Shown here: one piece after another, positions 9,201 through 57,184 of the stretch | How the letters are laid out: the number at the start of each line of letters is the position of its first letter | How positions within the stretch are numbered: position 1 is the first letter of the stretch | Source of the DNA: a virus | Reading direction: 5' to 3' (one strand) | Virus record (IMG/VR): IMGVR_UViG_3300038465_000158 | Location: 32,686 to 96,685 of that record | DNA length: 64,000 nucleotides | The notes under the pieces: model-generated | What the model was told of the DNA's origin: nothing | Seen by the model: only the letters and a program-made list of their open reading frames with translations | Databases searched by the model: none | Program-made: the position numbers and the translations under genes

Positions 9201-9366
9201 GAATGCACCGAGATTCGTTATGGGCACGAGCGGAGGCGGTGACACTCACGTTCATGTTCACGTTCAAGGTGCCGTTTATGGTTCACTTGACAAGTTCGCT
9301 GGAGAACTCGGTCGGCATATCACTGGAACACTGTTGCCGCAGGCCGGCGTCAAACTGGATCACTAA
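6217..9366 (+). CDS. Tape measure protein
   Basis: 1049 aa, Ala-rich and helical; LGVSVFNSKGNFIGL (TP901-type core), W-spaced repeats, C-terminal HDGGII..PAILQAGEGV. Confidence 0.93.
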   Translation: MALQDLTLLMGIEARENVVGVCQRISDEVERVTGLFKDMGGTASEAGDLMTTAMSDPETTAGILQARMTELAGATERLTIAEKEFRDATLAASDMSDVDATALDRQAAATKEYEGALVVATKAQHDARDATEKNMAAQDLANKSTDESAGFLAAAGTKLDKIGPAAAVATAGIIGIAYESAKAASKFNDDIITVANSANISMKAANNIGQAFLDMSTKSIFTASDITQSFGKVAGQLTQVAGHALTVKQSVAFMNVAMQAAAASGQPLSTITSNLAKIMQQYHISLKQAAAGETALYNEGRLTGQNMNMVTQQITRLKGQLGILAPNIEQTASFMLDLTDHGMNARRASQALSSSLNTLLKTSHLTVPTMSEMDAALKKLPPDLQQYGKALLDGKEKVSAFDQQMKNFGKGELHGTVMASYLKSFEGLATQAKSSIGTINALKLSPVQEELSHLGVSVFNSKGNFIGLAGVLAKVGPKLNDMHNKSKELTAATILFGTQAKALLPTILAGGVGYEKAAKAINDQRAMTEASRRAQNNYEADMKKVDHAIEMVRIELGQAFLPILEKVMKEFVKIVTPIADWIQKNKKLTAEILVVVGGITGLITVLWATHKVMSVVSNTFVNFGKDVQKAWTAGGKLVSGIKDIITKMTGLKAANEEAAGTQDALAGSTEGLAVAQGEGAAATEALGDASLAAAPEIDAAGAPVLAIVAAIALLAIAIYELVKHWKTVWGAIKDVATAVWDALKTAWNDFWGFLKAAWDTLLSVGKDIFHTLGIGILVVLGPIGLIIIAVKELVTHWTTIWHTVLSVFDTVASGISKGVHDIISFFTGMPSKILGSISKLGSMLLNFGETSVKDMGKGIVAGAKAIWDFFTALPGKILSLADGVLDDMLHFGENIVKRIISGIENLASGIGKAVMDAIKHIPGIGGLLAKGLGYAGDVVHGAGVVIGGIGHGISSLFHHDGGIINGTPGSDVPAILQAGEGVFTRGQMRALGGMVNAPRFVMGTSGGGDTHVHVHVQGAVYGSLDKFAGELGRHITGTLLPQAGVKLDH

Positions 9367-27984: not shown

Positions 27985-30900
27985 ATGCCCCTCGGCTCCA
28001 ATTACCTAGGGCAGGCGTATCTCGGGCAAGGTCGCGCGCCGCAGCGATTCACTAGGACCGCGACCGATTCGAGTGTCAACACTGATGCGGTAGTCCGCAC
28101 CTACGGTCCGACAAGATTTGCTACTGATTTTTCACTTAACACTGATGCTGCAACTCGTACATTTGCTCAAATTCGTACAACTACGGACAGTTCCGTCAAT
28201 ACTGATGCTACTACTCGAACTACTCAAACACTTATTCGTACGACCACGGACAATTCCGTCAACACCGATGCCATTATTCGCGCAATTCAAGTCTTCACTA
28301 GAACAGCAACGGATTCTAGCATCAATACTGATGCAGTAACTCGCATCCAAGGACGAACACGTTCGGCAACTGATGCTTCAGTGAATACAGATGCAATCAT
28401 TAGATCAGTTCAAACATTAGTCAGAGCCGCGTCAGATTCGAGTGCCAATACTGATGTCGTAACGGCTACCAAAGTCTTTATTCGTGCTGCTAGTGATTCA
28501 AGTATCAACACGGATGCAGTCGTACGAGCAGTTCAAATTTTCATCCGCGTAGCGACAGATAGTTCCGTCAATACAGATGTAGCTGCAAGAACGATTTCGC
28601 GTGTCAGAACTACTACTGATTCGTCAATAAACACGGATTCTGTATCGCGCAACGTTCAAATATTTAGTCGCGCCACAACGGATACCTCAACTAACACGGA
28701 TTCTGTCACTAGAGGGCCTCTGATATTTACTAGAACGGCTACAGACACTTCTCTCAACGCAGATGCTGCAGTTCGAATTGTCGCGATTACTCAAACGGCA
28801 ACTGATTCATCAATCAACACTGATGCAGCCGTTAGAAGTGTTCAAATCTTCATCCGCACCGCAACAGACGCAAGTTTGAATACTGATTCCGTAGTTCGTT
28901 CGTTCGTCAAACTTCGAACTACTACTGATTCATCAATCAATACGGATGTCGTTACTCGAGCAACAATTATCTTCATTCGCACAACAGCCGATTCATCAGT
29001 GAACACGGACAATGCTGCACATTCGTTCATAATAGCAAGGACTGCAACTGATTCATCGGTCAATACCGATGTAGTCGTCCGTTCGGTCTTAGCACTTGCC
29101 AGAAGCGCAAGCGATTCGAGTATCAACACAGACATCGTTATTCGTACGATGCAGATATTTGTACGCACAGTAACGGATGCAAGCATCAATACCGATGCTG
29201 TTGCACGTACTTTCATTTTTGCTCGGTCTGTAGCAGATTCTTCAGTCAACGCAGATGTTGCAACAACACCGCTGGTAAACCGAACAGCATCAGACGCATC
29301 TGTCAATACGGATACTGTGCTTCGTACGTTCATCTGGATTCGAGTTGCTAGTGACAGTTCTGTCAATACGGATGCAGCTATACGAGCGGCGCAAACGCTC
29401 GTTCGTACGGCGACGGACAACTCAATCAACACAGATTCTGCTGCGCGGTCGAGTCAAATCTTTGCAAGAAGTGCAACTGACGCATCTGTCAACACTGACA
29501 ATGCTATACGATCTTTGACCGTAATCCGCGTCGCAACCGATACATCAATCAATACGGATGCAGTTATTAGAAGTGTTCAAACGTTCATCAGAACGATAAG
29601 TGATTCTAGCACCAACACTGATGTAGCAGTAAGAATTCGTTCCGCTGTCCGTGCAGCGATTGATTCGAGCATCAACACGGACGCGATAGTTCGTGCCGTG
29701 CAAACGTTCATTCGAAGTGCCACAGATGCAGCACTGAACACTGATGCTGTGGTTCGATCGTTCGTTGAGATTCGAACGATAACTGATACGTCTCTTACTG
29801 CCGACACGGTTATTCGAACTCAAACGTTCGTCAGAACAGTAACTGACGCGTCAGTCAATACAGATAGTGTCATTCGGCAACTGACGTTTGCACGAACATG
29901 CTCTGATGTATCTATCAATACTGATTCTGCTTCTCGCACAAGATTGATCATTCGGACTACTGCTGATGCATCAATCAACACGGATGCTGTTGTTCGATCA
30001 ATTCAAGTTTTCGTACGATCAACGAATGATTCTTCTGTTAACACAGATTCAGTAGTCAGTACATTGACAATTGTTCGAAGTAGTGCAGATTCATCGCTCA
30101 ATACGGATATGATATCCAGAGCGATTCAAGCATTTATTCGTTCCGCGGTAGACGCAAGTATCAACACTGACAGCGCATCACAAAGTCAAATAGCAATTCG
30201 AATAGCGGCAGACTCATCAGTCAATACTGATGTTACGACTCGCGGGACCCAAGTTTTTGCTAGAACTGCTGGCGATAACTCAATCAATACAGACACTGCT
30301 ATTCGAGCAAGAACAATAAGTAGAACTGCTGCTGATGCTTCAGTAAACACCGATGCTGTAGCACGAACTATTCAAATATTCATTCGAAGTAACACAGATT
30401 CGTCACTTAATACTGATGCGACGGTAAGGTCGACGCATATATTCGTCAGAAGCGCCGCGGAATCAAGTCTCAATACAGATGCAGTCACTCGGTCAATCAT
30501 CATCTTTATTCGCAACGCAGTTGACTCATCAGTGAACGCAGATGCTATTACTCGAACTCAAGCAATTTCTCGTTCAACTTCTGACACGAGCCTCAACACT
30601 GATACGGTCGTACGAACGTTCATACGAATTCGAACGACGAATGATTCTAGTCTCAACACAGATTCTGTTCAACGGTCATTCATGCAAATTCGAACAAGCA
30701 CGGATGCTTCTGTCAATACTGATATCGCAACTCAATCAGAATCTCTACACAGAGTTGTCACTGATTCATCGCTTAACACTGATGTGACAATTCGAGCGGC
30801 GCAGTTGTTTATTCGAGGCATAACGGATTCGAGTCTCAATACTGATAATGCTGGCATCTCCAACGCAATTCTTCGTTTTGCTTCAGACACCTCAATTGAC

Positions 30901-31971
30901 ACAGATGCAGTAGCAAGAACGCAAGCAGTATTTATTCGTTCTACTACTGATTCTTCTACAAACGTAGATGCAGTTACACGAGTAGAGACTGAAAATCGAA
31001 ATGCAATAGACAACAGCAATAACGCTGACACAACAACTCGTTCTGCCGCGTTCGTTCGCTCTGTTTCAGACACTTCACTCAACTCTGACATTGCTACTAG
31101 ATCAACAACCGCGGTTCGTGCAGCGGCAGATTCTTCAATCAACAATGACAATGCTACAAAATCAACAATGTACTTCAGAATTTGCGCGGATGCAAGTACA
31201 AATGCAGATTCTGCTTCACGGTCGGCGACGTTCGCTAGCCGAAATGCGATTGACTCATCGCTCAATGTAGACGCTACCATTCGCAGTCAAGTCTTCGTAC
31301 GATCTATTGCTGATGCGTCAACAAATACTGATGTTGCTGTCAATTCCAGCGGTCTTCCAACTAGATTTGCGAATGATTCTTCAGTCGACAATGACAACGC
31401 CACGAGAACGCATTCTGCAACACGGTCAACATCCGATTCGAGCATCAATACGGATAATGCTTCTGGCTCGCGGTCAACAAGCCATTCCGCAACAGATTCT
31501 TCTCTCAATACAGATACTGTCGCTGCGTTGACAATAATGACTCGAACGATAACCGATGCAAGTCATAATGCGGATTCCATCAACCAGTACATTACGTTCA
31601 CTCGAACTACTACAGATCTTTCGATAAATGTAGATGTCGCTACACGCGCAACTGGACTTTACCGAGGAATTGCTGACCAGTCATTCAATACTGACATCAC
31701 AACTCGCCGATTCATTGTTACCCGAAGCACCGTCGATACTTCTCTTAACACAGACGTTGCAGTCGGTACCTCCACGTCAAAGAGCAACATTGTCATCACA
31801 TCTGCGACTGTAGGCATTCTCACTAGCGTCACAAATGCACTCGGAATCTCAACTTCAACAAGTAATTCAACAACAATAGAAGCTTCGGTAGACGTTTCAA
31901 TCGATGTTGCGACTACTGTTGATAGTGATATTCAAGATGCAGACACAGTCTCAACGAATGTACGAGTGTAA
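27985..31971 (+). CDS. 1328-aa tandem-repeat protein, probably a virion fibre
   Basis: Roughly 60 repeats of 20-21 aa, consensus R-T-A-T-D-S-S-[IVL]-N-T-D-A-x-x-R; N-terminus MPLG..YLG..YLG. Confidence 0.8.
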   Translation: MPLGSNYLGQAYLGQGRAPQRFTRTATDSSVNTDAVVRTYGPTRFATDFSLNTDAATRTFAQIRTTTDSSVNTDATTRTTQTLIRTTTDNSVNTDAIIRAIQVFTRTATDSSINTDAVTRIQGRTRSATDASVNTDAIIRSVQTLVRAASDSSANTDVVTATKVFIRAASDSSINTDAVVRAVQIFIRVATDSSVNTDVAARTISRVRTTTDSSINTDSVSRNVQIFSRATTDTSTNTDSVTRGPLIFTRTATDTSLNADAAVRIVAITQTATDSSINTDAAVRSVQIFIRTATDASLNTDSVVRSFVKLRTTTDSSINTDVVTRATIIFIRTTADSSVNTDNAAHSFIIARTATDSSVNTDVVVRSVLALARSASDSSINTDIVIRTMQIFVRTVTDASINTDAVARTFIFARSVADSSVNADVATTPLVNRTASDASVNTDTVLRTFIWIRVASDSSVNTDAAIRAAQTLVRTATDNSINTDSAARSSQIFARSATDASVNTDNAIRSLTVIRVATDTSINTDAVIRSVQTFIRTISDSSTNTDVAVRIRSAVRAAIDSSINTDAIVRAVQTFIRSATDAALNTDAVVRSFVEIRTITDTSLTADTVIRTQTFVRTVTDASVNTDSVIRQLTFARTCSDVSINTDSASRTRLIIRTTADASINTDAVVRSIQVFVRSTNDSSVNTDSVVSTLTIVRSSADSSLNTDMISRAIQAFIRSAVDASINTDSASQSQIAIRIAADSSVNTDVTTRGTQVFARTAGDNSINTDTAIRARTISRTAADASVNTDAVARTIQIFIRSNTDSSLNTDATVRSTHIFVRSAAESSLNTDAVTRSIIIFIRNAVDSSVNADAITRTQAISRSTSDTSLNTDTVVRTFIRIRTTNDSSLNTDSVQRSFMQIRTSTDASVNTDIATQSESLHRVVTDSSLNTDVTIRAAQLFIRGITDSSLNTDNAGISNAILRFASDTSIDTDAVARTQAVFIRSTTDSSTNVDAVTRVETENRNAIDNSNNADTTTRSAAFVRSVSDTSLNSDIATRSTTAVRAAADSSINNDNATKSTMYFRICADASTNADSASRSATFASRNAIDSSLNVDATIRSQVFVRSIADASTNTDVAVNSSGLPTRFANDSSVDNDNATRTHSATRSTSDSSINTDNASGSRSTSHSATDSSLNTDTVAALTIMTRTITDASHNADSINQYITFTRTTTDLSINVDVATRATGLYRGIADQSFNTDITTRRFIVTRSTVDTSLNTDVAVGTSTSKSNIVITSATVGILTSVTNALGISTSTSNSTTIEASVDVSIDVATTVDSDIQDADTVSTNVRV
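28050..31765 (+). repeat. Coding tandem repeat of 60/63-nt units, degenerate at DNA level
   Basis: Recurrent GATTC...TCAAYACNGAY with heavy synonymous divergence. Confidence 0.85.
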
Positions 31972-32001
31972 TTAAATAGAATTGAATCGAGCAAGGAGTT
32001 G

Positions 32002-32325
32002 ATGGCAGCGACGTTAACGCAACCAGATACATTTGATGAAGGTAATGTACTCGTCTTCACATCAACATGGGTTGATGAATTAACGCAAGAACCCACGAAT
32101 CCAGGAGCAGTTGCGTTCGGCTATCGAGTGAACGGTGGCATAGTACAACCGTTTATTTTTGGCTCAAGTAGCATGACAAATCCAATTACTGGCACGTTCA
32201 CAATTAGTATTCCTTCGCGCGGATTTCCTGGAGTGTGGAAATGGCAATGGGAATCTACTGGTAGCGGTGAAGGCCAGAAGAACGGCGCAATCACGGTTGT
32301 GCCGATGCCGATGTCACTATTATGA
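32002..32325 (+). CDS. Small Ig-like virion-module protein
   Basis: AAGGAG RBS; TGTFTISI...PGVWKWQW.STG. Confidence 0.6.
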   Translation: MAATLTQPDTFDEGNVLVFTSTWVDELTQEPTNPGAVAFGYRVNGGIVQPFIFGSSSMTNPITGTFTISIPSRGFPGVWKWQWESTGSGEGQKNGAITVVPMPMSLL

Positions 32326-32960
32326 CCGACGATTCTCGTCTCGAATCACTTGGACAATTCACGCCAGAAGGAGTTCTCACTCCTGGCTACGGCGACCATT
32401 ACTTATTCCTGGTCGGTCGAGATGATTGCCACGGTATTCTTCACTACCTCATCCCGAAAGAGCGGTTATTCTTCAAATTCAACATGTTCGGATTTGACGA
32501 TGACATCTTGAATGCCGACATCATGGCGCTTTTCCAAGACCCTGGAGTTCGAGTCCAGGCATCGCTTGACCGTTCTCAAGCTGGCGGAGTTCACGAAAAG
32601 AAAATCATCGCCTTGGATGAGCAGAATGACGCGACGGACTTCAGCAACAGTTTTGTAATCTTGGAATCAGCAACTCATCAAATCAGTCATACGAAGGGCG
32701 GTGTGCTGGTCGGCCAAGGTCTCGGCTTTGAAGGGTCGATGAACTGGAGCAACTCTGGAGAAGGAACTGGCATCAGCCTCAAAGCAGATGTAAAGAATCC
32801 TTCAGGTTTCAAAGCACAGAACAATACTCTTCTTGTCTCGGTGAATCCAATTTTCCTGGCGCGATTCTCTGCCCAACTCGATGCTGAACATCAGATTGGA
32901 ATTGCTCAAAATGCAGCGAAGAGTACGGCGGTGAAAGACAATTTCACGCCAGGAACGTAG
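32322..32960 (+). CDS. Phospholipase D-superfamily protein (single HxK motif)
   Basis: MFGFDD, LDRSQ, and SHTKGGVLVG...EGSMNWS...QNN; the Asp of HKD is absent. Confidence 0.7.
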   Translation: MTDDSRLESLGQFTPEGVLTPGYGDHYLFLVGRDDCHGILHYLIPKERLFFKFNMFGFDDDILNADIMALFQDPGVRVQASLDRSQAGGVHEKKIIALDEQNDATDFSNSFVILESATHQISHTKGGVLVGQGLGFEGSMNWSNSGEGTGISLKADVKNPSGFKAQNNTLLVSVNPIFLARFSAQLDAEHQIGIAQNAAKSTAVKDNFTPGT

Positions 32961-47895: not shown

Positions 47896-47948
47896 AAAGA
47901 TGATATAATCTATATGTGGAAGTTTTCCAAGGACAAAGGACAGAGGAG
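47896..47948 (+). promoter_or_regulatory. Extended -10 promoter, tandem AAGGACA and RBS
   Basis: TGATATAAT at 47901-47909; AAGGACA twice at 47929-47942; GAGGAG. Confidence 0.7.
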
Positions 47949-47953
47949 TTAAA

Positions 47954-48781
47954 GTGACCATATTCTATGGTGGCCGGACCTCGTATGCTGCGTCTCCACG
48001 GCAACTGAACTACGCGAGAAAATTGGCATTTGCCAAGACACTTGACGGAGTTGAGTGGGTGGAAGAAGTGCGCTTGAAGTTCAACACGAACTGCGCTCAC
48101 TTCGATGCAGACATCGTCGACCGCTTGCTTCAAGCGCAAAGAGACGGAGCTCGCGCTCGTCGTCTTGCCGAACCTGCAACAGACAACCAAGTCGACTACG
48201 CTACCAAGCTTCTTGCAGAGCGAGTCGAGGCTGGCATGCTGCCTCAGGAGATGGTCGTCTCGGCCGGAATCACCAAGGGTGAAGTTTCCGAGCTCATAGA
48301 CGGCTTGCTCAAGATGAAGGTTCCTTACAAGGTCGTGGACAAGGACACAGGTGAGGTCACTCGCACTGTCTCCATACCTCTTGGGACGTACACTGTGGTC
48401 CTTGGTGATGAGAGTGATTACGTCACTCTTCGCGTGGAGAACGCCTCGTTCATAAAGGACGCAAAGAAAGTCATGGTCTCGTACCTCTGTGGCTCGGACA
48501 ATGACTACTCGTACAAGGGATTCGCGTTCGTCAATCCTTCTGGCTTGGCGGTCTGGAAGAAGTTCAAGGAGAATTCTCGGGTGACCAAGGCCGCTCAAGT
48601 TCTCTGGGCACTGGCTCAGACGGACGCCGGACTTGGTGAGGCTCATGAGGAGTTTCTCAAGCAAGCAGAAGCGTACGCTCTTCGAAGCGGAAACTGCATG
48701 CGGTGTCACAAGACACTCACAGTTCCTGCTTCACTTCACCGCGGACTCGGGCCTGTTTGCGCCGGTTTGGAGGCATGGTGA
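47954..48781 (+). CDS. DUF6011-like Zn-binding protein
   Basis: C-terminal CMRCHKTLTVPASLHRGLGPVC; N-terminal ASPRQ/ATDNQ helical repeats. Confidence 0.75.
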   Translation: MTIFYGGRTSYAASPRQLNYARKLAFAKTLDGVEWVEEVRLKFNTNCAHFDADIVDRLLQAQRDGARARRLAEPATDNQVDYATKLLAERVEAGMLPQEMVVSAGITKGEVSELIDGLLKMKVPYKVVDKDTGEVTRTVSIPLGTYTVVLGDESDYVTLRVENASFIKDAKKVMVSYLCGSDNDYSYKGFAFVNPSGLAVWKKFKENSRVTKAAQVLWALAQTDAGLGEAHEEFLKQAEAYALRSGNCMRCHKTLTVPASLHRGLGPVCAGLEAW

Positions 48782-48873
48782 TTGAATTCGTCATTGGAAT
48801 GGTTGGAGGTTCGTTGTTTGTACTATTCGCGCTGATTCCTTGGCTTGAACGACACGGATGGTGGCCAAAGTGA
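48775..48873 (+). CDS. 32-aa membrane peptide
   Basis: MVIEFVIGMVGGSLFVLFALIPWLERHGWWPK; coupled to neighbours; below the ORF-track cutoff. Confidence 0.5.
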   Translation: MVIEFVIGMVGGSLFVLFALIPWLERHGWWPK

Positions 48874-49037
48874 TGGTTCACGTCGCGTCTGTGCTTATTG
48901 GAGACGTCACTCCGTTCGGAGTTGTTGAGTCTGTAGTGAGTACACGTAACAACATCAAGACAACGATCACGTTCGTCGGAGGCAAGAAAAAGCGATTTCC
49001 TCGCTTTGCAGAAATAGAAGTTGAAGTTTCAGAGTAA
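48873..49037 (+). CDS. 54-aa hypothetical protein
   Basis: TGATG coupling; MVHVASVLIGDVTPFGVVESV... Confidence 0.5.
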   Translation: MVHVASVLIGDVTPFGVVESVVSTRNNIKTTITFVGGKKKRFPRFAEIEVEVSE

Positions 49038-49073
49038 TGCACATTTGTGTTATTATTGACTTATGAGGACGGA

Positions 49074-49340
49074 ATGATGATTGAAGTTTGGAAGTGCTGG
49101 AAGGGTCTCCAACCGGGAGATGTTTTCAAAGTCCAAGAGACTCGTGGAGATTTCGAGTTTATTGAAGCTAAAGTGGAGGACCACAAAGTTACTGGAATTC
49201 TTGCTCGTGGCGGTCGTAAAGGTTATGAGAAGATGCGAATCCTCTGGCCAGATCGGGTGATTATTCCGACGGAAAAAGAACTGCAAAAGCAGCGAAAAGC
49301 AAAAAAGATAAAGGACAAGGAAAATGCTAGCAACGCTTGA
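49074..49340 (+). CDS. Hypothetical protein (SH3/KOW-like beta)
   Basis: Preceded by TGTTATTAT (49048-49056) and GAGGACG. Confidence 0.6.
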   Translation: MMIEVWKCWKGLQPGDVFKVQETRGDFEFIEAKVEDHKVTGILARGGRKGYEKMRILWPDRVIIPTEKELQKQRKAKKIKDKENASNA

Positions 49341-50223
49341 AAAGCTTGGCAATGATGCCAAGAACATCAATTCTGTCGAGGATGCACTTCGACAGTTCAA
49401 CATGGACTGGGCTGTTGAAGTCCGTCCGACGTACTTCACTCGAAACGACGGAAGCAAGGCCGAAATGCCTCGCTGCTTCGCCACGGTGCGGTCCGACAAC
49501 GAGACAATGCTTGGTCGAGTCGGCGCAGACTATGTACCGATGAGCAACGCCAAGTCATTGAGTCACGTCGACAGCTTGATTCAGTCAGGCGCGGCGACCT
49601 TGGACTCTGTCTTCGAATTGAAGAACGGACGCCAAGTCGGAGCATCACTTCGGCTCAACGACAAAATCTCAATCGCGGGTGAAGACCCCATTGAGATGTA
49701 CATCGTTGTCGCGACCAGTCACGACGGTACTCGGGCGGACAAGACGGCAATTGTTCCAATTCGAATGTGGTGCTTGAACCAGATGGCACTCATCAGTCGA
49801 AAAGCTGTCCAGTCGTGGTCTGTTCGCCACTTGTCAACCATGGAAGCGAACTTGAAGTTCGTCGAAGAGGAGCTCAAGATGGTGGCCAATTACAGCGAGT
49901 GGTTTCAGAAGACTTGCGACGACTTGGTTGCTCAAGCTCTTAACGAGATTGAGTTGAGTGCCATGGTCCTCGACGCGCTGAAGGACTTCCGTGCTGAAGA
50001 CAAGGCGAAGAAGATGACGGAGGAAATCGTCGACTTGTTCAAGTACAGTAACCTCATTGGAGACGACTTCCACGGCACTGCTTGGGGCGGACTCAACGCA
50101 GTCACGGAGTACTTCGACCACCACAAGACGTACCGCACGCCGCAGGCACGGTACAACTCAATCACCAACGGATTCGGCGCTCATATGCGGAATTCGGTGG
50201 CAAGCCGGCTCATTAACGCGTGA
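49324..50223 (+). CDS. DUF932/DUF945-family protein
   Basis: DW.V, RSD....LG.VG..Y.P..N, SHDG, R.WC.N, RH, GTAWG.LNAVTEY.DH. Confidence 0.88.
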   Translation: MLATLEKLGNDAKNINSVEDALRQFNMDWAVEVRPTYFTRNDGSKAEMPRCFATVRSDNETMLGRVGADYVPMSNAKSLSHVDSLIQSGAATLDSVFELKNGRQVGASLRLNDKISIAGEDPIEMYIVVATSHDGTRADKTAIVPIRMWCLNQMALISRKAVQSWSVRHLSTMEANLKFVEEELKMVANYSEWFQKTCDDLVAQALNEIELSAMVLDALKDFRAEDKAKKMTEEIVDLFKYSNLIGDDFHGTAWGGLNAVTEYFDHHKTYRTPQARYNSITNGFGAHMRNSVASRLINA

Positions 50224-50657
50224 GCACACCGCTTGACTTTTTGTTTGAGGGCTCTCCAGAGGGCCCTCAAACATTAGTTGAAATCAAACGAGCGTACGAC
50301 GACACGGGAAAACCGTTTGGGGAATTCGTCAAATGGAGACAACTTCGTGCTGGCATTTGGGCGATGACCGTCGAGGCTCTTGCGCACAATCGTCCAAAAA
50401 TCGTCTTCATTCTTGCGACGCAACAAACTGGAGACAATGACGTACTTGACACAATTAAAGACGTCTCAATAAACTCGCTACCGTTGTATATTGACCATCG
50501 CTCACCAGATGCGCGACAAGCGCAGATGCAACGCAGTTGCGTTGACGTTTGCGACAGAGTATTCGTCATCAACATCGGCGAAATTGACAATCAAACACAA
50601 CTCATCATCGATTATGCAGAACAAATTGGGAGACAAGTCGTCTACCTTCGCTATTAG
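50220..50657 (+). CDS. Hypothetical protein (Rossmann-like C-terminus); start uncertain
   Basis: VD.CDRVFVIN.G.ID..T...I.YA...G..V.Y resembles deoxyribosyltransferase-like folds. Confidence 0.5.
   Translation: MSTPLDFLFEGSPEGPQTLVEIKRAYDDTGKPFGEFVKWRQLRAGIWAMTVEALAHNRPKIVFILATQQTGDNDVLDTIKDVSINSLPLYIDHRSPDARQAQMQRSCVDVCDRVFVINIGEIDNQTQLIIDYAEQIGRQVVYLRY
50242..50273 (+). terminator. Long hairpin just after the DUF932 gene
   Basis: TGTTTGAGGGCTCTC-CA-GAGGGCCCTCAAACA, one G-U pair. Confidence 0.55.
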
Positions 50658-50665
50658 GGAGAGAA

Positions 50666-51019
50666 ATGCCAGCCGCAAAGAAGCCAGTAAAGAAAGCAGC
50701 AGTCAAAAAAGAAGCAAGTCCGCAAGTGAAGAGTGCATTGGAAAAAGCACTTGAACGAGCGAACGAAAATCCTGCTGTCAAGCAAGACGAAACATCGATT
50801 CCTGAAGAACATCAGATGACGTGGCCTCTCCCGGTGTATCCACTTGTCGCAAAATTCGATGTTCAAGTTGTAGAATTAGAGGATACTCAAGCAATTGTCC
50901 TCGCGATTTACACTGGAGCAGGAGCGACGTTCGGGCTTCTGTCTCGAGAAGGAACCATTGCTCTTGCGCAAAAGCTCAAGAAAGCTGGCAATACGATGAC
51001 ACCTGGTCCGGTGAAATGA
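50666..51019 (+). CDS. Hypothetical protein with Lys/Ala-rich N-terminus
   Basis: GGGAGAG RBS; MPAAKKPVKKAAVKK. Confidence 0.65.
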   Translation: MPAAKKPVKKAAVKKEASPQVKSALEKALERANENPAVKQDETSIPEEHQMTWPLPVYPLVAKFDVQVVELEDTQAIVLAIYTGAGATFGLLSREGTIALAQKLKKAGNTMTPGPVK

Positions 51020-51204
51020 GCGGCGAGAACGAGCCAGAGAATCCTCTTAGTGAACAAACCGCAGGTGCAATCTATTTGCACGAGCTCTATCGAAGTTACA
51101 TTCAAGTCGGATTCACAAATGAGCAAGCATTTGCTCTCGTTACGACGACATTGACGACAATGCTTCAACTAGGGATTGCTAGAGGAGGTGGTGCTGATGA
51201 ATAA
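51016..51204 (+). CDS. Small hypothetical protein
   Basis: ATGA overlap; LHELYRSY..VGFT.EQAF.L motif familiar from actinophage small proteins. Confidence 0.6.
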   Translation: MSGENEPENPLSEQTAGAIYLHELYRSYIQVGFTNEQAFALVTTTLTTMLQLGIARGGGADE

Positions 51205-51246
51205 CACGCAGTGCAATGCGTAACATCCCTCGAAAATCGGAGTCTC

Positions 51247-51744
51247 ATGAAAAGAAGTTTCCTCGTTCTTACCATATGTTTGTCGGTGGTGTTTGGTGCT
51301 GTAGCAGCGACTGCGACCAACGCAACCACAACAACGACCTCAACGTCAGTAGTGCGTATCACAACGACTACGTTCAAACTCATTCCGCCACCGAGGGTGA
51401 AAGCACCTCCCTGGTATAAACCGCTTCTGGCGCTTCCGTCGTCGTGGCAAACTCCAATTCAGTGCATGATGCGAGTCGAGTCACGTTCGACTGAAACGCA
51501 GCCGAATTTAGGTGACGACAACGGCAATGGTGTCAACACAAATCATGGTGAAGGTGAACAGTCTGGTCTGTTTCAAATGAGCAATGGACCGCGTGGCATC
51601 TGGGACATTTACGTATTACCGCGTCTTCATGTTGTCATATGGAAAGCGACTGCGTTTCAGCAAGCTGAGGGACTCGTTTTAGTGCTTAAACTTGATGGTG
51701 GTTTTCACCCTTGGCATGGTGATGGCTGCATCTATCCAAACTAA
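51247..51744 (+). CDS. Secreted lysozyme-like (Rpf/SLT-type) transglycosylase
   Basis: Signal peptide, Thr-rich linker, C.MRVES (catalytic Glu), SGLFQM, W...Q, PW..DGC. Confidence 0.7.
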   Translation: MKRSFLVLTICLSVVFGAVAATATNATTTTTSTSVVRITTTTFKLIPPPRVKAPPWYKPLLALPSSWQTPIQCMMRVESRSTETQPNLGDDNGNGVNTNHGEGEQSGLFQMSNGPRGIWDIYVLPRLHVVIWKATAFQQAEGLVLVLKLDGGFHPWHGDGCIYPN

Positions 51745-51778
51745 AACGTAGTTAGAATGAAACCGACAATAGGAGTTA

Positions 51779-52159
51779 ATGACCGACGAATTCGAAGAAG
51801 TTGAAAAGAAATACGGTCATCTTCTTGTTGTTGGAACATGCTTTCTTCTCATAGTTGCTACTGTCATCGGTGGTCTCTTTTCGCACTGGTTTGCGATTCG
51901 ATTGCAGCAAGATTTCTGGCCGATTGACGCATCTCGCATCTCTCCTAACATCGTTGCCAGTCTCATCCAAGCAGTGTTCGTCGTTCTCATCATGGCGTTG
52001 TTCTACCCGCCATTTAAGAAAGCACTCGATAAAGCAGCGGCGAAACGAGCACTTGAGATTAAGCAACACGTTACTGCTGGCCTCAATGAACTGCACGGCA
52101 AACTCGATCACATCATCTATCACAGTAAAGACATTCCTGAGTACGAGGAGCCAAAATGA
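51779..52159 (+). CDS. Two-TM membrane protein
   Basis: AGGAG RBS; two hydrophobic helices. Confidence 0.65.
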   Translation: MTDEFEEVEKKYGHLLVVGTCFLLIVATVIGGLFSHWFAIRLQQDFWPIDASRISPNIVASLIQAVFVVLIMALFYPPFKKALDKAAAKRALEIKQHVTAGLNELHGKLDHIIYHSKDIPEYEEPK

Positions 52160-52473
52160 CCGACAAAGAATACATACAACATCTTCGACATCACTCAATG
52201 ATGGGAGGTTCACAAGGAGTTGCTGCGCAACAAGAATTGCGAAAATATTCTGACAATGAAGAACGCGATGACCAAGGCAAATGGACCGGTGGAGGTGATG
52301 TCGGTCCGACTGTAACAAATGTTTCAACAGGGCAGCAAATCGGCCGCGCAGACGCCGCAGCTAGAATGTTTGGTGCTGGTAGTAAACAGCATCTTCAAAT
52401 GATTAAAGAATATGGCGTTGGAGAAATCCATCCAGACGGTACACTTGCACCTGGAAGTCAATTTGCTCGATGA
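52156..52473 (+). CDS. KYS..RDDxGRF-motif family protein 1
   Basis: ELRKYSDNEERDDQGKWTGG. Confidence 0.7.
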   Translation: MTDKEYIQHLRHHSMMGGSQGVAAQQELRKYSDNEERDDQGKWTGGGDVGPTVTNVSTGQQIGRADAAARMFGAGSKQHLQMIKEYGVGEIHPDGTLAPGSQFAR

Positions 52474-52865
52474 CAAAGATTGAAGAGTTACCTAAAGATT
52501 TGCTAGGTCGTCCGAACATGTCGTACCTGGGTCACACCAGCGACATCGTCCCAACTCCCTGGCCGTATGAAGGTCGCCGTACCGCTCCAGGAATGCCTCG
52601 CCGTTTCACACGACGCAAAGATGGTCGGACAAAAGCGGAAGACAATGAGCTCAAGCGACTCGCGAAAATCGAGAACCCAGGGAAATGCCAAGGGAGACGC
52701 AATCAATTTGACGGTTGGTGCACATGGCCTTGCTATCCCGGACTCACTGTTTGTTGGCGTCACGGCGGTCGCATTAAGCATATTCGTGCTGTGGGCGACA
52801 AGCGTATGGCTGAGAAGCGAATGATGGAGAAAGCGGGCAAAATCGCTGCCAGAGCGAAGAAGTGA
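52470..52865 (+). CDS. HGG-type Zn-binding protein (terminase small subunit-like domain)
   Basis: CQGRR...C...C.PG.TVCWRHGG. Confidence 0.55.
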   Translation: MTKIEELPKDLLGRPNMSYLGHTSDIVPTPWPYEGRRTAPGMPRRFTRRKDGRTKAEDNELKRLAKIENPGKCQGRRNQFDGWCTWPCYPGLTVCWRHGGRIKHIRAVGDKRMAEKRMMEKAGKIAARAKK

Positions 52866-53083
52866 GAACTCGCGAGAATTCTGTCGTTGTGTCCATTCGC
52901 ATTGCAAAAGAGTTGAACAAAGAGTTTCATGCTTTGTGCGCAGAACTAGGAGTACAATCATCTCGTATGCTTCTTTCTGCAATGACCTCTCAAGTCCAGC
53001 GAATGCGTGAAGATGCGAACAAACGACGACAACTTCGAGATTACTCGACATGGGAAGACCACTGGCGTGCTAACAAAGATTAA
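52862..53083 (+). CDS. Ribbon-helix-helix DNA-binding protein
   Basis: VVVSIRIAKELNKEFHALCAELGVQSSRML. Confidence 0.65.
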   Translation: MRTRENSVVVSIRIAKELNKEFHALCAELGVQSSRMLLSAMTSQVQRMREDANKRRQLRDYSTWEDHWRANKD

Positions 53084-54584
53084 GTCACTCTCCTCATTCG
53101 CCAAGATTGGTGTCGTCAAATACTCTGCTGATGAGGCGCGAGATGACGATGGTCGATTCGCGTCTGGTGATGCGCCAAAGGCAGACGATTCAACATACGT
53201 CAAAGCGAATTCGAAAGACGATCCTGAGAAATGGTCAAAGCAAATCCTCAAGCAATTGGCAAACGGCGAACATCCATACGTAAAACCGAGTGAAGTCGCG
53301 ACATTGCTCAAGCAAGTCTCGAAATCTGGAGACAAGCGAGCAGCAACTGCCGATATTACGAATCTTCGAGTGAATGGGACTCGACTTATGGGACATGACG
53401 GACTTGGCTACAAACGAAGTGAAATGCCACAAATCAGTGGAGATATGAGACATCAGTATTTCGCTGATTTGCGCGCTCAAGGAATCACTGTAACTCCTTC
53501 AACAGCAAATCCTCTCTTACTTCAGCCATCGCAAAGCGAAATTGGAGTCGGCCGCGCAGCAGAAGTGTACAAAGAACTCAACGGCAAAATTGACGACCAA
53601 AAGCAAATTCTCGTTTCGCGAGACAACTACATCATCGATGGTCATCATCACTGGGCGAGTGCTGTCGCAACTGCACTAAGAGCGAACGGTCCGCAAGAAA
53701 TACCGATTGTTCGACTTGGTGCTTCAGGTGAAGATATGGTACGAATCTCAAAGCAATGGGCAGACGACCATGGATTGAAGTCACGAGCTCTCGGTAAATT
53801 TTTCGCGCCGCGACGATACGAGTACCAAGTCGCAAATCCGCTTGCAAAGTACAACGAAGACCAAGCACGAGATGATGATGGGCGATTTGCTTCTGGAAGC
53901 AATTTGCACGGATATGCTCTTAATGTCGCGCAACGAGTTGTTGCTGAAGCGCAAATGCACGTGGCGAAAATCACAGCAGATGTCACCGCTGCAATCAAAG
54001 CAGGCGACGGAGAACGTGCACGAATGACGTCACCACAAGGCAAAGACACGACAGTGAAGAGTCCAGAACGTCTCGCGCAGAAGCTCGTAGAGCCACTCAA
54101 TTCAACGAATAGATTGAGTAAAGCGGGGATTGCGATGCAAACTCTCCATGCTGGTGATGTAGTTCGTTACACTGGAGTCTACAATCCCTCAACGATGACT
54201 GAGGGCATAGGCAGAACCATCTCGTCTCTTCAAGCAACAGGGTACGAGCCTGTCAAAATCAAGAACTATTTCAACTCTGACCCGCAAAACGGATTCCGTG
54301 GCATCAATTCCGTGTGGGAAGACAAGACAAGTGGTGTCAAGTTTGAATTTCAGTTCCACACTCAAGACAGCATCGATGCTGCTGATAAGTGGCACGGAAT
54401 CTATGAAGAGATTCGCCAACTTCCAATGACATCTGAAGCGTACCAGTCAACGAGAACAGCGATGCTCGCTGGATTCGCTCAAGTGCCGATGCCTCCAGGA
54501 ATTGAAAGCGTTGGAACTCGTTCAGTGAAGAAGCGAATAAAGATTGGACGGCTTGCGCACAAAGATGATATAATCAATATATGA
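53007..54584 (+). CDS. Polyvalent protein: motif + ParB/Srx-like domain + motif + RelA/SpoT-like synthetase
   Basis: R.EMPQI, L.PSQSEI, ILVS.DNYIIDGHHHW (ParB-like); KSPERL..K, DVVRYT, KNYF, FRGIN, FEFQFHT (small alarmone synthetase-like); two KY..D.ARDDDGRFASG motifs. Confidence 0.8.
   Translation: MKMRTNDDNFEITRHGKTTGVLTKIKSLSSFAKIGVVKYSADEARDDDGRFASGDAPKADDSTYVKANSKDDPEKWSKQILKQLANGEHPYVKPSEVATLLKQVSKSGDKRAATADITNLRVNGTRLMGHDGLGYKRSEMPQISGDMRHQYFADLRAQGITVTPSTANPLLLQPSQSEIGVGRAAEVYKELNGKIDDQKQILVSRDNYIIDGHHHWASAVATALRANGPQEIPIVRLGASGEDMVRISKQWADDHGLKSRALGKFFAPRRYEYQVANPLAKYNEDQARDDDGRFASGSNLHGYALNVAQRVVAEAQMHVAKITADVTAAIKAGDGERARMTSPQGKDTTVKSPERLAQKLVEPLNSTNRLSKAGIAMQTLHAGDVVRYTGVYNPSTMTEGIGRTISSLQATGYEPVKIKNYFNSDPQNGFRGINSVWEDKTSGVKFEFQFHTQDSIDAADKWHGIYEEIRQLPMTSEAYQSTRTAMLAGFAQVPMPPGIESVGTRSVKKRIKIGRLAHKDDIINI
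54561..54580 (+). promoter_or_regulatory. Extended -10 promoter for a probable leaderless transcript
   Basis: TGATATAAT at 54566-54574, 6 nt before ATG 54581; AAAGATGATATAATC is identical to 47896-47910. Confidence 0.65.
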
Positions 54585-54796
54585 CAGCGTACAAGTACTA
54601 CCAACTAGTGACGCTCGACGGAAAAGAAACACCTCGTTTCTACTATCGACAGGGAGATTCAGGTGACGACATCTGGAATCCGACATCGAATCAATGGGTG
54701 CCTACTCACGATCTTTTGGGAATGATCACAAAGAACGAGACTGCATTAGATAGGATTGATTACGATCCGACAAGTGATCAACAGGAGGTATCATGA
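54581..54796 (+). CDS. Candidate immunity protein for the upstream RelA/SpoT-like domain
   Basis: Small, acidic and aromatic (KYY...YR...W....W); overlaps the toxin stop; has its own promoter. Confidence 0.5.
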   Translation: MTAYKYYQLVTLDGKETPRFYYRQGDSGDDIWNPTSNQWVPTHDLLGMITKNETALDRIDYDPTSDQQEVS

Positions 54797-54972
54797 AGAT
54801 TCCATGGGCATTTATTCTCGCAGTTGTCTTCATCGTTTTTGCCGCAATCGCAGCAGGAGTTCCGCGTCTCATTTTCACAATGAACTGGAATTTCTGGGTA
54901 TGCGTCGCGCTTCTCGCATACTGGATTAGTAAGACGCGCTTCGGCACCGTTGATCTAGCGCAAAAGGAGTAA
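54793..54972 (+). CDS. 59-aa two-TM membrane protein
   Basis: AGGAGGT RBS; MKIPWAFILAVVFIVFAAIAAGVPRLIFTMNWNFWVCVALLAYWISK... Confidence 0.65.
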   Translation: MKIPWAFILAVVFIVFAAIAAGVPRLIFTMNWNFWVCVALLAYWISKTRFGTVDLAQKE

Positions 54973-54974
54973 CC

Positions 54975-55181
54975 TTGAGCAAAGTACGTGAAAAGGATAC
55001 TGGTCGTTTTGCGGCGCAATCGCGAATAGAAGCGCATCCGAATCTTGACAAATTGGATTTGTCAAAAGAACCGAAGAAACAAATCACTCAGAATTTTCAG
55101 CGAGGCGCACTCGGCGCTGATAAAGGCCGCGCTCGCACTAACGCTCAAATTCGTGATTCAGGACCGACGATACCTCAATGA
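54975..55181 (+). CDS. Small basic protein with partial R..TGRF motif
   Basis: AAGGAG RBS; MSKVREKDTGRFAAQ. Confidence 0.55.
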   Translation: MSKVREKDTGRFAAQSRIEAHPNLDKLDLSKEPKKQITQNFQRGALGADKGRARTNAQIRDSGPTIPQ

Positions 55182-55657
55182 GCGAAACAATTGCTGACGA
55201 ACTTTCGTACTTGAATCGACGAGCAGAAGAAGGCGGATACGTTGGAGAATCTGCTCGGCAAGCGTTGTTGAAGTACAGCGAAGATGAAGAACGCGATGAC
55301 CATGGAAGATTTGCTGGAGGCGGTGGAACAGCAAATTCATCACGCGAAGATGTGAGTAGCAGACTTGAAGGAACTGCGCGTCTTTTTGCAACACGACAGA
55401 GCGGCAACGGCGCGCAACGTATTGCAATGAGCGGCAAGGCTGATGGTCTTCGCCAAGCTGCGGATATGATTCGCGGAGGTGCACAACAAAGTCATCTTGA
55501 AGAAGAGCGACAAGCGTCGCTTAGTGAAATGACTCGTATCGGAAGCAAACGAAGTGGTGACCTCACAGATGAATGGGCATATCACAACGGTCGTCAATCT
55601 GGTTTTCAAGATGCGCAAACGGCAATGAGTGAAGCTGGACTTTCAGAATATGCCTAA
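55178..55657 (+). CDS. KYS..RDDxGRF-motif family protein
   Basis: ALLKYSEDEERDDHGRFAGG. Confidence 0.7.
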   Translation: MSETIADELSYLNRRAEEGGYVGESARQALLKYSEDEERDDHGRFAGGGGTANSSREDVSSRLEGTARLFATRQSGNGAQRIAMSGKADGLRQAADMIRGGAQQSHLEEERQASLSEMTRIGSKRSGDLTDEWAYHNGRQSGFQDAQTAMSEAGLSEYA

Positions 55658-56282
55658 AATAATTGACCCAGAATTTCGTGCATATCTTCAAGCGCAAATT
55701 GCTAAAGGTGGACAAATAGGAGCATCTGCGCAATCTGAACTCTTGAAATATTCAGAAGACCAAGCACGCGACGACAATGGTCGATTTGCTTCTGGTGGAG
55801 GCGGAGGTTCAAGCGGTGGAAGTAAAGACGGAGGAAACGTGAGTGACGAAGGTCGTGGAGGCGACGGCGCGAGAGTGCGTGCTGCTTGTCTCGAAGCAGA
55901 AGCAAAGACAAAAGGCGGAAGTACTGCCGCGTATGCTGCTCTGAAAGATGGAGTGAAAGAGACACTGAGCGACTACATATACCGCGGCAAGCAGTACGGC
56001 GAAGAAGACCCCAAAGGACCTGACAATCCAGGACGTTGGGGTGCTTCTATTCAAGCAGTCACTTCAGGTTCAGGCGCTGGAACTGACTGGCTGAATATTA
56101 CGCAACGGGACAATGCTGAAGACAACGTCGGGGACAAAGGCGTCGTGAGTGACATGATTGACACACTGAAAGAGTCTGGTTACGGTTCGTTCACGGACAT
56201 CATTCCGAACAACAGTGGCACGAGTTTCAGCATGAAGTTCAATGATGCGATGAACACGGACCGATACGCGACGCATTCATGA
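55650..56282 (+). CDS. KYS..RDDxGRF-motif family protein
   Basis: ELLKYSEDQARDDNGRFASGG followed by a Gly linker. Confidence 0.7.
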   Translation: MPKIIDPEFRAYLQAQIAKGGQIGASAQSELLKYSEDQARDDNGRFASGGGGGSSGGSKDGGNVSDEGRGGDGARVRAACLEAEAKTKGGSTAAYAALKDGVKETLSDYIYRGKQYGEEDPKGPDNPGRWGASIQAVTSGSGAGTDWLNITQRDNAEDNVGDKGVVSDMIDTLKESGYGSFTDIIPNNSGTSFSMKFNDAMNTDRYATHS

Positions 56283-56422
56283 AGAAAATCGACCCAGAAT
56301 TTCGTGCGTATCTTCAAGCGCAAGTTGCTAAAGGTGGGCAGTCTGGCGCATCTGCGCAATCTGAACTCTTGAAATTTTCAGAAGACCAAGCGCGAGATTC
56401 AAATGGTGAATTTGCTTCTGGC
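55665..56422 (+). repeat. ~130-bp direct repeat encoding the shared leader (55665-55796 and 56291-56422)
   Basis: GACCCAGAATTTCGTGCRTATCTTCAAGCGCAARTTGCTAAAGGTGG...GCATCTGCGCAATCTGAACTCTTGAAATWTTCAGAAGACCAAGC in both copies. Confidence 0.9.
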
Positions 56423-56734
56423 GCCGAGAACTCTGCGTACGCTTCTGCTGCAACCGAAGCGCGAAGTGCGTCCGATGCTGCATCTCGAGAAGTCCAAGGA
56501 TACGGTGAAGGCGCTGACCACGAGCATCTTGCTCAAGCGCACGCAGACGCCGCGAATGCTCACGACATCATAGGACGACTTTACACAGGTTCTGGCAAAA
56601 CTGAATCAGCAACTGCGCATTTCGATGCGGCAGGAGCGCATCGAGACGCTGCCGCTGCTCATCTCTCTGGAAGCGAAGATTCGTACGACAAAACGTACGC
56701 CGCGGCAGACATGACGGATGCGCTGCTAAACTAA
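56279..56734 (+). CDS. KYS..RDDxGRF-motif family protein with His/Ala helical repeats
   Basis: ELLKFSEDQARDSNGEFASG; AH.DAA.AH repeats. Confidence 0.7.
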   Translation: MKKIDPEFRAYLQAQVAKGGQSGASAQSELLKFSEDQARDSNGEFASGAENSAYASAATEARSASDAASREVQGYGEGADHEHLAQAHADAANAHDIIGRLYTGSGKTESATAHFDAAGAHRDAAAAHLSGSEDSYDKTYAAADMTDALLN

Positions 56735-57184
56735 ATGGAATGTGCTGCTGGATGTGGCTCTAGGTCGGAGAGCGATCCTCTGGATGGCAATCTAGCACTT
56801 ATACCGCCAGTTCAATGGATTACTGTTGGTGTCGACATTGCGCTTCAAGAACCGCCTTTCCAGCAACGTGATGAACGCTACAGCGGCGTTTGCTGTTCGA
56901 TGGATTGTGTGATCACTTTTCTTCGTCGCAAAAAGCAAAGTATGGAGCTCTCGAAGATTCCAGTCATCGTTGAACATTCGTGGGATTGGACGCCAGAGAC
57001 ACGAAGCGATGTCGCAAAGCGAATCGGATTTCTCGTTCTTGAAGCGGTCACTGATATGGACGACACTGGCAAGATTGTCGTGCTTCCACTCTCTGAAGAT
57101 GTAGAACTTCTCGGTCGAGAAGTCTGCGTAGCGTTATTTCCTGGAATCCCAGAGCTCGAGCCAACGTCGAATCCACTCGATTAG
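56735..57184 (+). CDS. Hypothetical protein (Cys motifs)
   Basis: CAAGC...CCSMDC; last gene before strand convergence. Confidence 0.5.
   Translation: MECAAGCGSRSESDPLDGNLALIPPVQWITVGVDIALQEPPFQQRDERYSGVCCSMDCVITFLRRKKQSMELSKIPVIVEHSWDWTPETRSDVAKRIGFLVLEAVTDMDDTGKIVVLPLSEDVELLGREVCVALFPGIPELEPTSNPLD

Follow-up and report, generated by a model that had tools for sequence, protein, structure and literature searches.

Whether phages package and inject their small alarmone synthetase (SAS) toxins, and what protects the producing cell and the next infection against them, are questions that the literature leaves open (PMC10083569, PMC5576092). Both are raised by a locus in IMG/VR virus record IMGVR_UViG_3300038465_000158, the 96,685-bp genome of an uncultured phage that was judged complete; its last 64 kb (64,000 nucleotides [nt], positions 32,686 to 96,685) are the window analyzed here. 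Coordinates marked G000 or G000:C1 refer to the full record, and unmarked ones to the window. A preliminary description, made from the sequence alone, had proposed that a 525-amino-acid (aa) open reading frame (ORF) joins a ParB-like domain to an alarmone synthetase and that the 71-aa ORF behind it encodes an immunity protein. Comparison with 80 related viral loci leads us to a reading that we consider likely: the locus would encode an effector with a ParB-like carrier and an Apk/EAS-type SAS toxin, together with a 71-aa cognate immunity protein that has a promoter of its own. The features on which the argument turns are the following.

53007..54584, + strand: 525-aa ORF, putative two-module effector (PHROG 2859, E 8.6e-45; homologues P0002-P0006)
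53118..53168, + strand: junction motif 1 (KYSADEARDDDGRFASG) in the N-terminal leader (motif hidden Markov model [HMM] E 7e-13; predicted local distance difference test score [pLDDT] <50 over aa 1-62)
53202..53780, + strand: ParB/sulfiredoxin-like domain (aa ~66-258; invariant DGHHHW, KRSEMPQ and PSQSEI)
53847..53897, + strand: junction motif 2 (KYNEDQARDDDGRFASG) in the inter-domain linker (motif HMM E 8e-13; pLDDT <50 over aa 258-298)
53901..54536, + strand: predicted SAS (RelA/SpoT SYNTH) domain of toxin type (aa ~299-510)
54556..54574, + strand: putative extended -10 promoter (CGCACAAAGA-TGATATAAT) within the toxin 3' end (scored 10/12 with TG in a promoter scan; predicted transcription start at or next to 54581)
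54581..54796, + strand: 71-aa protein, founding member of the family here called fam71 and candidate cognate immunity protein (phmmer, AlphaFold2, co-occurrence with SAS)

The start of the 525-aa ORF is uncertain, with GTG 53007, ATG 53013 and GTG 53067 as candidates.

The 71-aa gene covaries with the SAS domain

To place the locus among relatives, several searches were made. GenBank phages searched with the locus DNA gave no match, and the 525-aa protein, P0003, P0010 and P0011 found no related loci when used as single queries against viral contigs. A search of IMG/VR with a ParB-SAS alignment recovered 80 ParB-bearing viral loci, which were scanned with HMMs for ParB, SAS, fam71 and an XkdF-type prohead protease. 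SAS was found in 50 loci, four of which end right after it. In every one of the 46 assessable loci, fam71 lay directly downstream of SAS on the same strand (44 detected at E≤1e-3 after one iteration, L062 and L063 at about 1e-3), and it was found in none of the loci without SAS (0/31).

The association takes three forms. In the phage under study, ParB-SAS is followed by the free 71-aa gene. In about 42 loci, ParB-SAS is followed by fam71 fused to the N-terminus of an XkdF-type prohead protease, within the head module; L006, for example, reads ART, polyvalent protein, ParB-SAS, protease, Tudor-motif protein, scaffold, capsid. In L062, L063 and L067, a large protein with GHEFRGNQW-type junctions ends in SAS, the fam71 gene (70–75 aa) is free, and ParB is a separate protein. 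In nine other loci the toxin behind ParB and the junction is Zeta (Pfam E 6.5e-25); the same protease comes next, but its N-terminal extension is another one, a helical ADLANKIF...VNEWVGDEYDD domain. In eight loci ParB is joined to the prohead protease by 20–30 residues, with neither toxin nor extension. The swap can be seen directly in an SAS/Zeta pair, L042 and L075: ParB is 77% and the XkdF protease 87% identical between the two loci, but toxin and extension, which lie between these flanks, are unrelated. Word-search homologues gave the same picture, with the ParB-like domain and junction motif followed by SAS (P0004-6), a Zeta toxin (P0003, Pfam E 8e-13) or other domains (P0002).

As in polymorphic toxins, a conserved N-terminal part thus carries exchangeable C-terminal toxins, and the downstream partner covaries with toxin type. 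The strict co-occurrence, combined with the SAS/Zeta swap between conserved flanks, indicates that toxin and partner are exchanged as one cassette, which at the sequence level is the signature of polymorphic toxin-immunity systems. Judged by these patterns, the 71-aa protein is a specific partner of the SAS domain and very probably its antidote, the inhibition itself being suggested by the covariation. The cognate-partner assignment of the preliminary description therefore stands, on stronger grounds than its author could have known. The covariation signal is very clean for a new partner family, which would extend the catalogue of immunity proteins; the direct exchange of SAS and Zeta cassettes between conserved flanks adds to its interest.

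Covariation of this kind might also reflect binding specificity rather than immunity, fam71 being an SAS-specific adaptor or chaperone that docks the toxin to the prohead protease or procapsid. The ~42 loci in which fam71 is fused to the N-terminus of the protease would fit such a role, as would P0016, which bears fam71 ahead of a GHPFRGNRW junction in the manner of a cargo module, and the failure to detect homology to the immunity proteins Tis1 or IapK. However, fam71 stands free, with no protease link, in the phage under study and in L062, L063 and L067; its position, its size (69–76 aa) and the rule that it is always downstream fit the Tis1/IapK immunity genes (PMC10083569); and a highly active, ATP-consuming toxin must be neutralized in the producer cell. 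We regard an adaptor function in place of immunity as quite unlikely, and note that the two roles are compatible with each other.

The protease extension according to toxin type can be followed in L016-L084 (e.g. L006:10292-11026, L053:5482-6270, L068:3137-5101). No earlier description seems to exist of immunity-like domains that are tethered to a prohead protease. The loci together form a natural series, from a partner that is free and has its own, putatively leaderless promoter to one fused to the prohead protease.

The C-terminal module is predicted to be a toxin-type SAS

The SAS region (aa ~306–502) matched SaEAS (PDB 8vx3) by phmmer at E 1.3e-14 with 27–29% identity, and at E 1.5e-24 with a five-sequence profile; the same region matched the NCBIfam model of the XopAD C-terminal Rel-like domain (E 9e-22). 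By tblastn it was ~30% identical to the C-termini of MuF 'head morphogenesis' proteins (Apk2 toxins) in prophages of S. pneumoniae, S. dysgalactiae and Mannheimia. The AlphaFold model of the 525-aa protein has a mean pLDDT of 59 and is mediocre in its SAS part (50–78). Searched with Foldseek, the SAS model retrieved 8vx3 first (E 5.4e-9), then RelP, SAS1, CapRel, Tas1 and Rel/SpoT, and VIA aligned 154 residues with 8vx3 at Z 9.9. All four SAS motifs listed in the preliminary description are present (KSPERLAQK, DVVRYT, FRGIN, EFQFHT), and the key residues K351, S352, K359, D384, R387, Y388, T389, E447, Q449, H451 and T452 are invariant among SAS-bearing homologues, as are H463 and Y466 of an additional HxxYE motif. 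D384 aligns with the active-site position of crystallized SaEAS at which the D121A mutation inactivates the enzyme (PMC12691689). We conclude that the C-terminal module is an SAS of the toxin/exported clade with intact catalytic motifs; its catalytic competence is predicted from sequence and model.

By analogy with these relatives, the enzyme would most likely use ATP as pyrophosphate donor and adenine and/or guanine nucleotides, at their 3'-OH, as acceptors, yielding (p)ppApp and/or (p)ppGpp; the acceptor substrate cannot be read from the sequence. For the same reason a tRNA 3'-pyrophosphokinase of the CapRel/PhRel/FaRel2 kind, which would block translation instead of synthesizing (p)ppApp or (p)ppGpp, has to be considered, the more so as the structural matches include CapRel (VIA Z 8.0, Foldseek E 3e-3). 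The only characterized relatives detectable by sequence are, however, SaEAS, whose products are (p)ppGpp as well as (p)ppApp, and Apk2, which makes (p)ppApp alone (PMC12691689, PMC12226406), and we think tRNA modification very unlikely.

The N-terminal module is less distinct. The ParB/sulfiredoxin-like part (aa ~66–258) was modeled at pLDDT 75–88 and had no Pfam match, and hmmscan of the whole 525-aa protein gave no Pfam match at E≤0.1. The fold assignment of aa 159–260 by VIA is modest (Z 6.9 to sulfiredoxin 6ky4, Z 6.6 to the ParB-like PadC 6ryk). In the ESM Atlas the domain adjoins viral ParBc_2 clusters (score 0.94; ParBc_2 annotated on 57% of members). Its pocket motif is DGHHHW rather than DGxHR, with the usual arginine out of place. 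By tblastn it shares 28% identity with part of the giant PLxRFG proteins found in F116-like Pseudomonas phages (E 2e-10 to 2e-12). According to its record, mass spectrometry has verified one of these, H66 gp60, as a virion protein. No MuF domain was matched in the 525-aa protein by Pfam or PHROGs. We propose that the ParB/sulfiredoxin-like domain serves as a carrier or binds nucleoside triphosphates, so that the ORF would be built like a polymorphic toxin or polyvalent protein, a conserved ParB/sulfiredoxin-like domain followed by an exchangeable C-terminal toxin. The description of the ORF as ParB-like plus alarmone synthetase is supported in both halves, by the sequence and fold matches to SaEAS, Apk2 and the XopAD C-terminus for the one and, more modestly, by VIA and the ESM Atlas for the other. 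A ParB-like domain in place of MuF would be a second carrier architecture for phage SAS toxins.

fam71 appears to be a new family of small beta-rich proteins

The 71-aa protein had no match in Pfam, PHROGs or NCBIfam. An exhaustive phmmer search of 1.84 billion proteins yielded 11 clusters at E≤1e-3, and the family was modeled by AlphaFold2 as a small beta-rich domain (pLDDT 88). Foldseek found no PDB match to this model at E≤0.001, and the family profile searched against PDB sequences gave only chance nanobody matches. The relation between the free protein and the N-terminus of the L006 protease was non-significant by BLASTP (E 0.1) and was detected by profiles (E 1.5e-5). With no library match and no description found in the literature, fam71 is apparently a new, undescribed family. 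We suggest, by analogy with Tis1 and IapK, that it neutralizes the SAS by binding, which would spare the producing cell a drain of ATP or an excess of alarmone.

P0016 (286 aa) consists of a fam71 domain, a GHPFRGNRW junction-type motif and a helical domain; judged from its sequence, fam71 can itself stand ahead of a cargo-type junction. A fam71 copy in an Acidimicrobiaceae metagenome-assembled genome (MAG) is a hint to the host group, no more.

An internal promoter may yield a leaderless transcript of the 71-aa gene

Inside the toxin 3' end, TGATATAAT at 54566-54574 is followed by CAATAT and by the ATG at 54581; this start codon and the toxin ORF's TGA stop share nucleotides (ATGA). This element, 6 nt ahead of the ATG, and its 15 nt in common with a promoter at 47896 (AAAGATGATATAATC, 47896-47910) are present as previously claimed. 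TGNTATAAT occurs four times in the window against 0.72 expected, a count reached by one of 100 shuffles. Genome-wide, nine + strand sites constitute a 19-nt promoter family sharing TG[CT]A[TA]AAA[GT]A-TG[TA]TATAAT.

G000 8547, 9358, 12484, 14311, 17775 and 19151, + strand: promoter-family sites in the left-hand block of small genes
38429, + strand: promoter-family site preceding the helicase gene
47901 and 54566, + strand: remaining promoter-family sites

None of the nine lies in the structural gene block, and the family is probably the phage's set of early or middle promoters for host RNA polymerase. At least five of the other eight sites precede a conserved AAGGACAAAGGA-like leader, which is missing at 54566. 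With 6 nt between the -10 element and the ATG at this site, transcription starting 7 nt past the element would begin at the A of the ATG itself. The same geometry is kept in two distant relatives with free fam71, in differing surroundings (TATAAT-ttaggt-ATG in L062, TATACT-atagtt-ATG in L067), whereas the protease-fused type has an ordinary Shine-Dalgarno sequence instead. The sequence arrangement supports an internal promoter and a leaderless transcript for the 71-aa gene, with a predicted start, and the earlier proposal of an independent promoter gains from both the nine-member family and the recurrence of the layout. Translation would then proceed either by coupling at the ATGA or from this early-type extended -10 promoter, probably as a leaderless mRNA, and the promoter would uncouple antidote expression from toxin expression.

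The site might instead be a general internal promoter for the block 54581-57184, the 71-aa ORF being translated mainly by termination-reinitiation at the ATGA. The stop/start overlap allows for it, no + strand terminator-like site separates 54796 from 57838, and the leaders behind at least five of the other family promoters show that leadered mRNAs are normal for this phage. Against it speak the placement of the -10 element exactly 6 nt ahead of the ATG, a spacing kept in L062 (TATAAT) and L067 (TATACT), and the lack of the usual leader at 54566. A general promoter is a real possibility, though we doubt that it is the better account of the site.

Junction motifs precede both domains and recur in the genome

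Each domain of the 525-aa ORF is headed by a disordered motif with the consensus K[YF]xxD[EQ]xRDxxG[RKE][FW], and both copies lie where the preliminary description had them (full strings VVKYSADEARDDDGRFASG, aa 36-54, nt 53112-53168, and LAKYNEDQARDDDGRFASG, aa 279-297, nt 53841-53897). In homologues, the position of motif 2 divides ParB from SAS, Zeta toxin or other domains. A motif HMM run over the 96.7-kb genome found eight copies and no more, distributed over six proteins; each is in frame and on the + strand (E 1e-12 to 1e-15), and the next best match has E>1. Eight copies are far beyond chance. Two are in the 525-aa protein, two in a zincin protein beside the portal (see below), and one in each of ORFs 52156, 55178, 55629 and 56279 of the cluster 52156-56734, which have a common leader ending in the motif and short, unrelated C-terminal parts. 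At the DNA level the motif/leader copies form a 57-nt family with 61–74% identity, and the leaders of ORFs 55629 and 56279 are 86% identical over 140 nt.

The four small neighbors and the zincin protein beside the portal carry the motif, from which we infer that it may mark head-associated cargo, whether as a signal for packaging, as a site of proteolysis or in both roles. In phage T4, Alt and the internal proteins have capsid-targeting sequences that are removed by the prohead protease gp21, an N-terminal tag thus loading enzymes into the procapsid. The concept of a short tag that loads enzymes would be the same, and loading and cutting are suggested here by analogy; the T4 tags differ in having no sequence relation to the present motif, which also occurs between domains.

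An additional cleavage site, ALGK/F, had been suggested after the ParB-like domain. The string is present (aa 268-272) but is not conserved in the homologue alignment, and nothing supports cleavage there; for the K|Y cut proposed within the motifs there is likewise no support, for or against. Two other candidates for degenerate motifs were rejected. The capsid N-terminus FAKIGGNEPLRDDGEIF (G000:C1:32497-34251, window 1-1566, aa 14-31) was not matched by the motif HMM, and ORF 54975 (VREKDTGRFA) was matched only at E 13. Apart from the motif, the capsid N-terminus FAKIGGNEPLRDDGEIF resembles the leader of the 525-aa ORF, FAKIGVVKYSADEARDDDGRF, which may be chance.

Is the effector carried in the virion?

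The genome is that of a tailed phage. A tape-measure protein gene at 6217-9366 of the window precedes tail fiber genes, and beyond these comes a replication block that encodes a DNA polymerase, a helicase, an exonuclease and a methyltransferase. Upstream of the window are the head genes, among them the terminase at G000 21200, a prohead protease of HK97 type (S78) joined to an acidic scaffold (G000 30225-32411) and a 584-aa capsid protein. Two further proteins of the head module bear on delivery.

G000:C1:23894-27529 (= L004:3894-7529), upstream of the window: 1211-aa portal, a portal-MuF-ParB fusion
G000:C1:27529-29685 (= L004:7529-9685), next to the portal: 718-aa protein with two N-terminal junction motifs and a HELMH zincin motif near the C-terminus

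The portal continues into a MuF-like CxxC...CRC region and then into a classical ParB (DGNHR) domain. The 718-aa protein was not recognized by any family library; its sequence makes it a candidate for the peptidase that would process the motif-bearing proteins.

Virion delivery, as proposed in the preliminary description, draws support from relatives: the homologues lie in head modules adjoining or fused to the prohead protease, and the H66 virion protein has a homologous ParB-like domain. In the genome under study itself the gene is outside the head module. On the evidence of the relatives, the ParB-SAS protein would be head cargo, and the junction motifs loading and/or cleavage signals for the prohead protease or the motif-bearing zincin protein.

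Several observations weigh against the reading of the locus as a virion-carried SAS toxin with a dedicated, separately expressed antidote. The 525-aa gene is ~58 kb downstream of the portal, outside the head module, which is unusual for virion cargo, and its neighbors are early/replication-side genes behind early-type promoters. The 54566 promoter may also serve the six further downstream genes, since no + strand terminator-like site was found between 54796 and 57838 and all seven could be driven from it. The association of SAS with fam71 has a raw Fisher p of 3e-22, but the loci are phylogenetically related and the raw counts overstate their independence; the fam71 copies fall in six clusters at 50% identity, so the rule is not that of a single recent lineage. 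The Pfam model RelA_SpoT (PF04607) reached 14.5 bits (E 0.0026), short of its gathering cut-off of 27, which assigns the SAS to a divergent clade, detected via SaEAS and the XopAD C-terminus. The resemblance of the 71-aa model to Tis1 (6ox6_B) by VIA is weak (Z 3.3, rank 12 of 48,161, 56 collinear residues), a lead from model comparison and no match; the ESM Atlas score for homology of fam71 to Tis1/IapK is 0.79. Aligned with IapK by hhalign, fam71 gave a probability of 0.2%, and with an enlarged profile E 0.012 and a probability of 3.5%. A true IapK profile did not find Tis1 by sequence either, and silence of this kind is therefore uninformative among such tiny immunity proteins. Finally, fam71 paralogues were found with no SAS in the short available flank, at L011:583-894 and L011:1741-2037 (a lake metagenome contig, where one copy abuts an ORF of the endonuclease/exonuclease/phosphatase family) and at L012:5001-5276 (the Acidimicrobiaceae MAG). 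These copies may be orphan immunity genes or a sign of a wider role; orphan copies in bacterial MAGs could give anti-phage protection.

The position of the gene would be explained if the 525-aa protein were an intracellular early host-takeover enzyme that is never packaged, the motif then being a recombination cassette boundary or a zincin peptidase site. The cluster 52156-56734 is far from the head module and downstream of sigma-70 extended -10 promoters (47901, 54566) that are absent from the structural region, and recombination fits the DNA-level similarity of the motif/leader copies (61–74% over the 57-nt family, 86% over 140 nt). Against this, homologues in other phages are within head modules or fused to the prohead protease, the same motif is found in the protein beside the portal of this very phage, and a homologous ParB-like domain is part of a virion protein verified, according to its record, by mass spectrometry. 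We consider a purely intracellular enzyme unlikely, if less so than the adaptor function discussed above, and prefer the reading as a packaged ParB-SAS effector with a cognate antidote.

If the effector is packaged, the antidote might act as a timing device for a capsid-delivered toxin, a tentative proposal and one that we hold with much less assurance than the toxin-antidote pairing itself. In most relatives, the SAS- or Zeta-specific immunity domain is fused to the protease; it would enter the procapsid together with the toxin and be lost through self-digestion of the protease, so that the toxin would be armed only in the sealed head. In the phage under study and in the L062/L067 group the antidote would be uncoupled behind a promoter for host RNA polymerase and leaderless; an injected pulse of toxin would shut down the new host, and fresh antidote would end it within minutes. 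The RDxxGRF motif would be the shared tag by which such cargo is loaded and released. That the antidote may stop injected toxin early in the next infection is suggested by its host-type early promoter, and is speculative. With its 80 relatives, the locus makes these questions of delivery and timing testable with simple constructs.

Comparison with known systems

SAS toxins followed by a small immunity gene are already known from phages, as is polyvalent or polymorphic head cargo; what differs here is the ParB-like carrier, the partner family, the putatively leaderless promoter arrangement and, in relatives, protease-fused immunity-like domains that swap with the toxin. The closest system is Apk2-IapK(-Aph1) of temperate phages, with examples in S. 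pneumoniae SPNA45, B. caccae and M. haemolytica (PMC10083569, PMC12226406). It is likewise phage-encoded, with a C-terminal SAS (~30% identical) behind a head-associated carrier domain and an ORF of ~70 aa immediately downstream; Apk2 toxins always precede a small Tis1-like immunity gene (PMC10083569), and in three phage records IapK has 68–72 aa and abuts the toxin gene. Apk2 produces (p)ppApp alone (PMC12226406). In contrast, the carrier here is ParB/sulfiredoxin-like rather than MuF, which in the phage under study is fused to the portal; the 71-aa protein has no significant sequence similarity to IapK; the gene is outside the head module and its modules are flanked by junction motifs; and no Aph1-type or Aph1-like HD hydrolase was found in the genome.

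SaEAS of Streptomyces albidoflavus, which makes (p)ppApp and (p)ppGpp (PMC12691689), is the best sequence and structure match of the SAS, with the active-site aspartate and ExQxHT conserved. It is chromosomal, has a Sec signal peptide and has no immunity gene, whereas the present SAS is a C-terminal phage module with a dedicated partner. The Tas1/Apk1-Tis1 pair of the P. aeruginosa type VI secretion system (T6SS; 6ox6) has the same toxin fold and a small (76-aa) immunity protein directly downstream, to which the 71-aa model bears the weak collinear resemblance already mentioned (Z 3.3, 56 residues). It differs in its PAAR/T6SS delivery and in the absence of detectable sequence similarity, both for the toxin (by phmmer) and for the immunity protein.

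Polyvalent proteins with DdrB-like ParB and RelA/SpoT domains are thought to be co-injected with DNA, and their processing by a zincin peptidase has been predicted (Iyer et al. 2017, PMC5512222). The 525-aa protein resembles them in joining unrelated effector domains in one polypeptide, ParB/sulfiredoxin and RelA/SpoT domains both being listed there, and the phage has an HExxH protein that bears the junction motif. It differs in having two modules only, and the virion-gene context is that of the relatives, not of the genome under study. By text search, that paper contains no junction motif, immunity family or toxin/immunity swap beside the prohead protease.

Neighboring genes

The 525-aa gene is within a + strand block (47954-57184) between the methyltransferase gene and a convergent primase gene. 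One ORF overlaps its 5' end.

52862-53083: 73-aa ribbon-helix-helix (RHH; Arc/RelB-like) ORF, overlapping the 525-aa ORF by 17–77 nt depending on the true start of the latter

The RHH ORF has weak matches to RHH_10, RelB and PHROG 582. It was considered as an antitoxin and rejected, being not conserved upstream of homologues and showing no covariation. Behind the 71-aa gene, a 59-aa ORF (54793-54972) has two membrane helices predicted by eye and a strong AGGAGG site, and it is followed by a 68-aa ORF (54975-55181) that begins MSKVREKDTGRFA.

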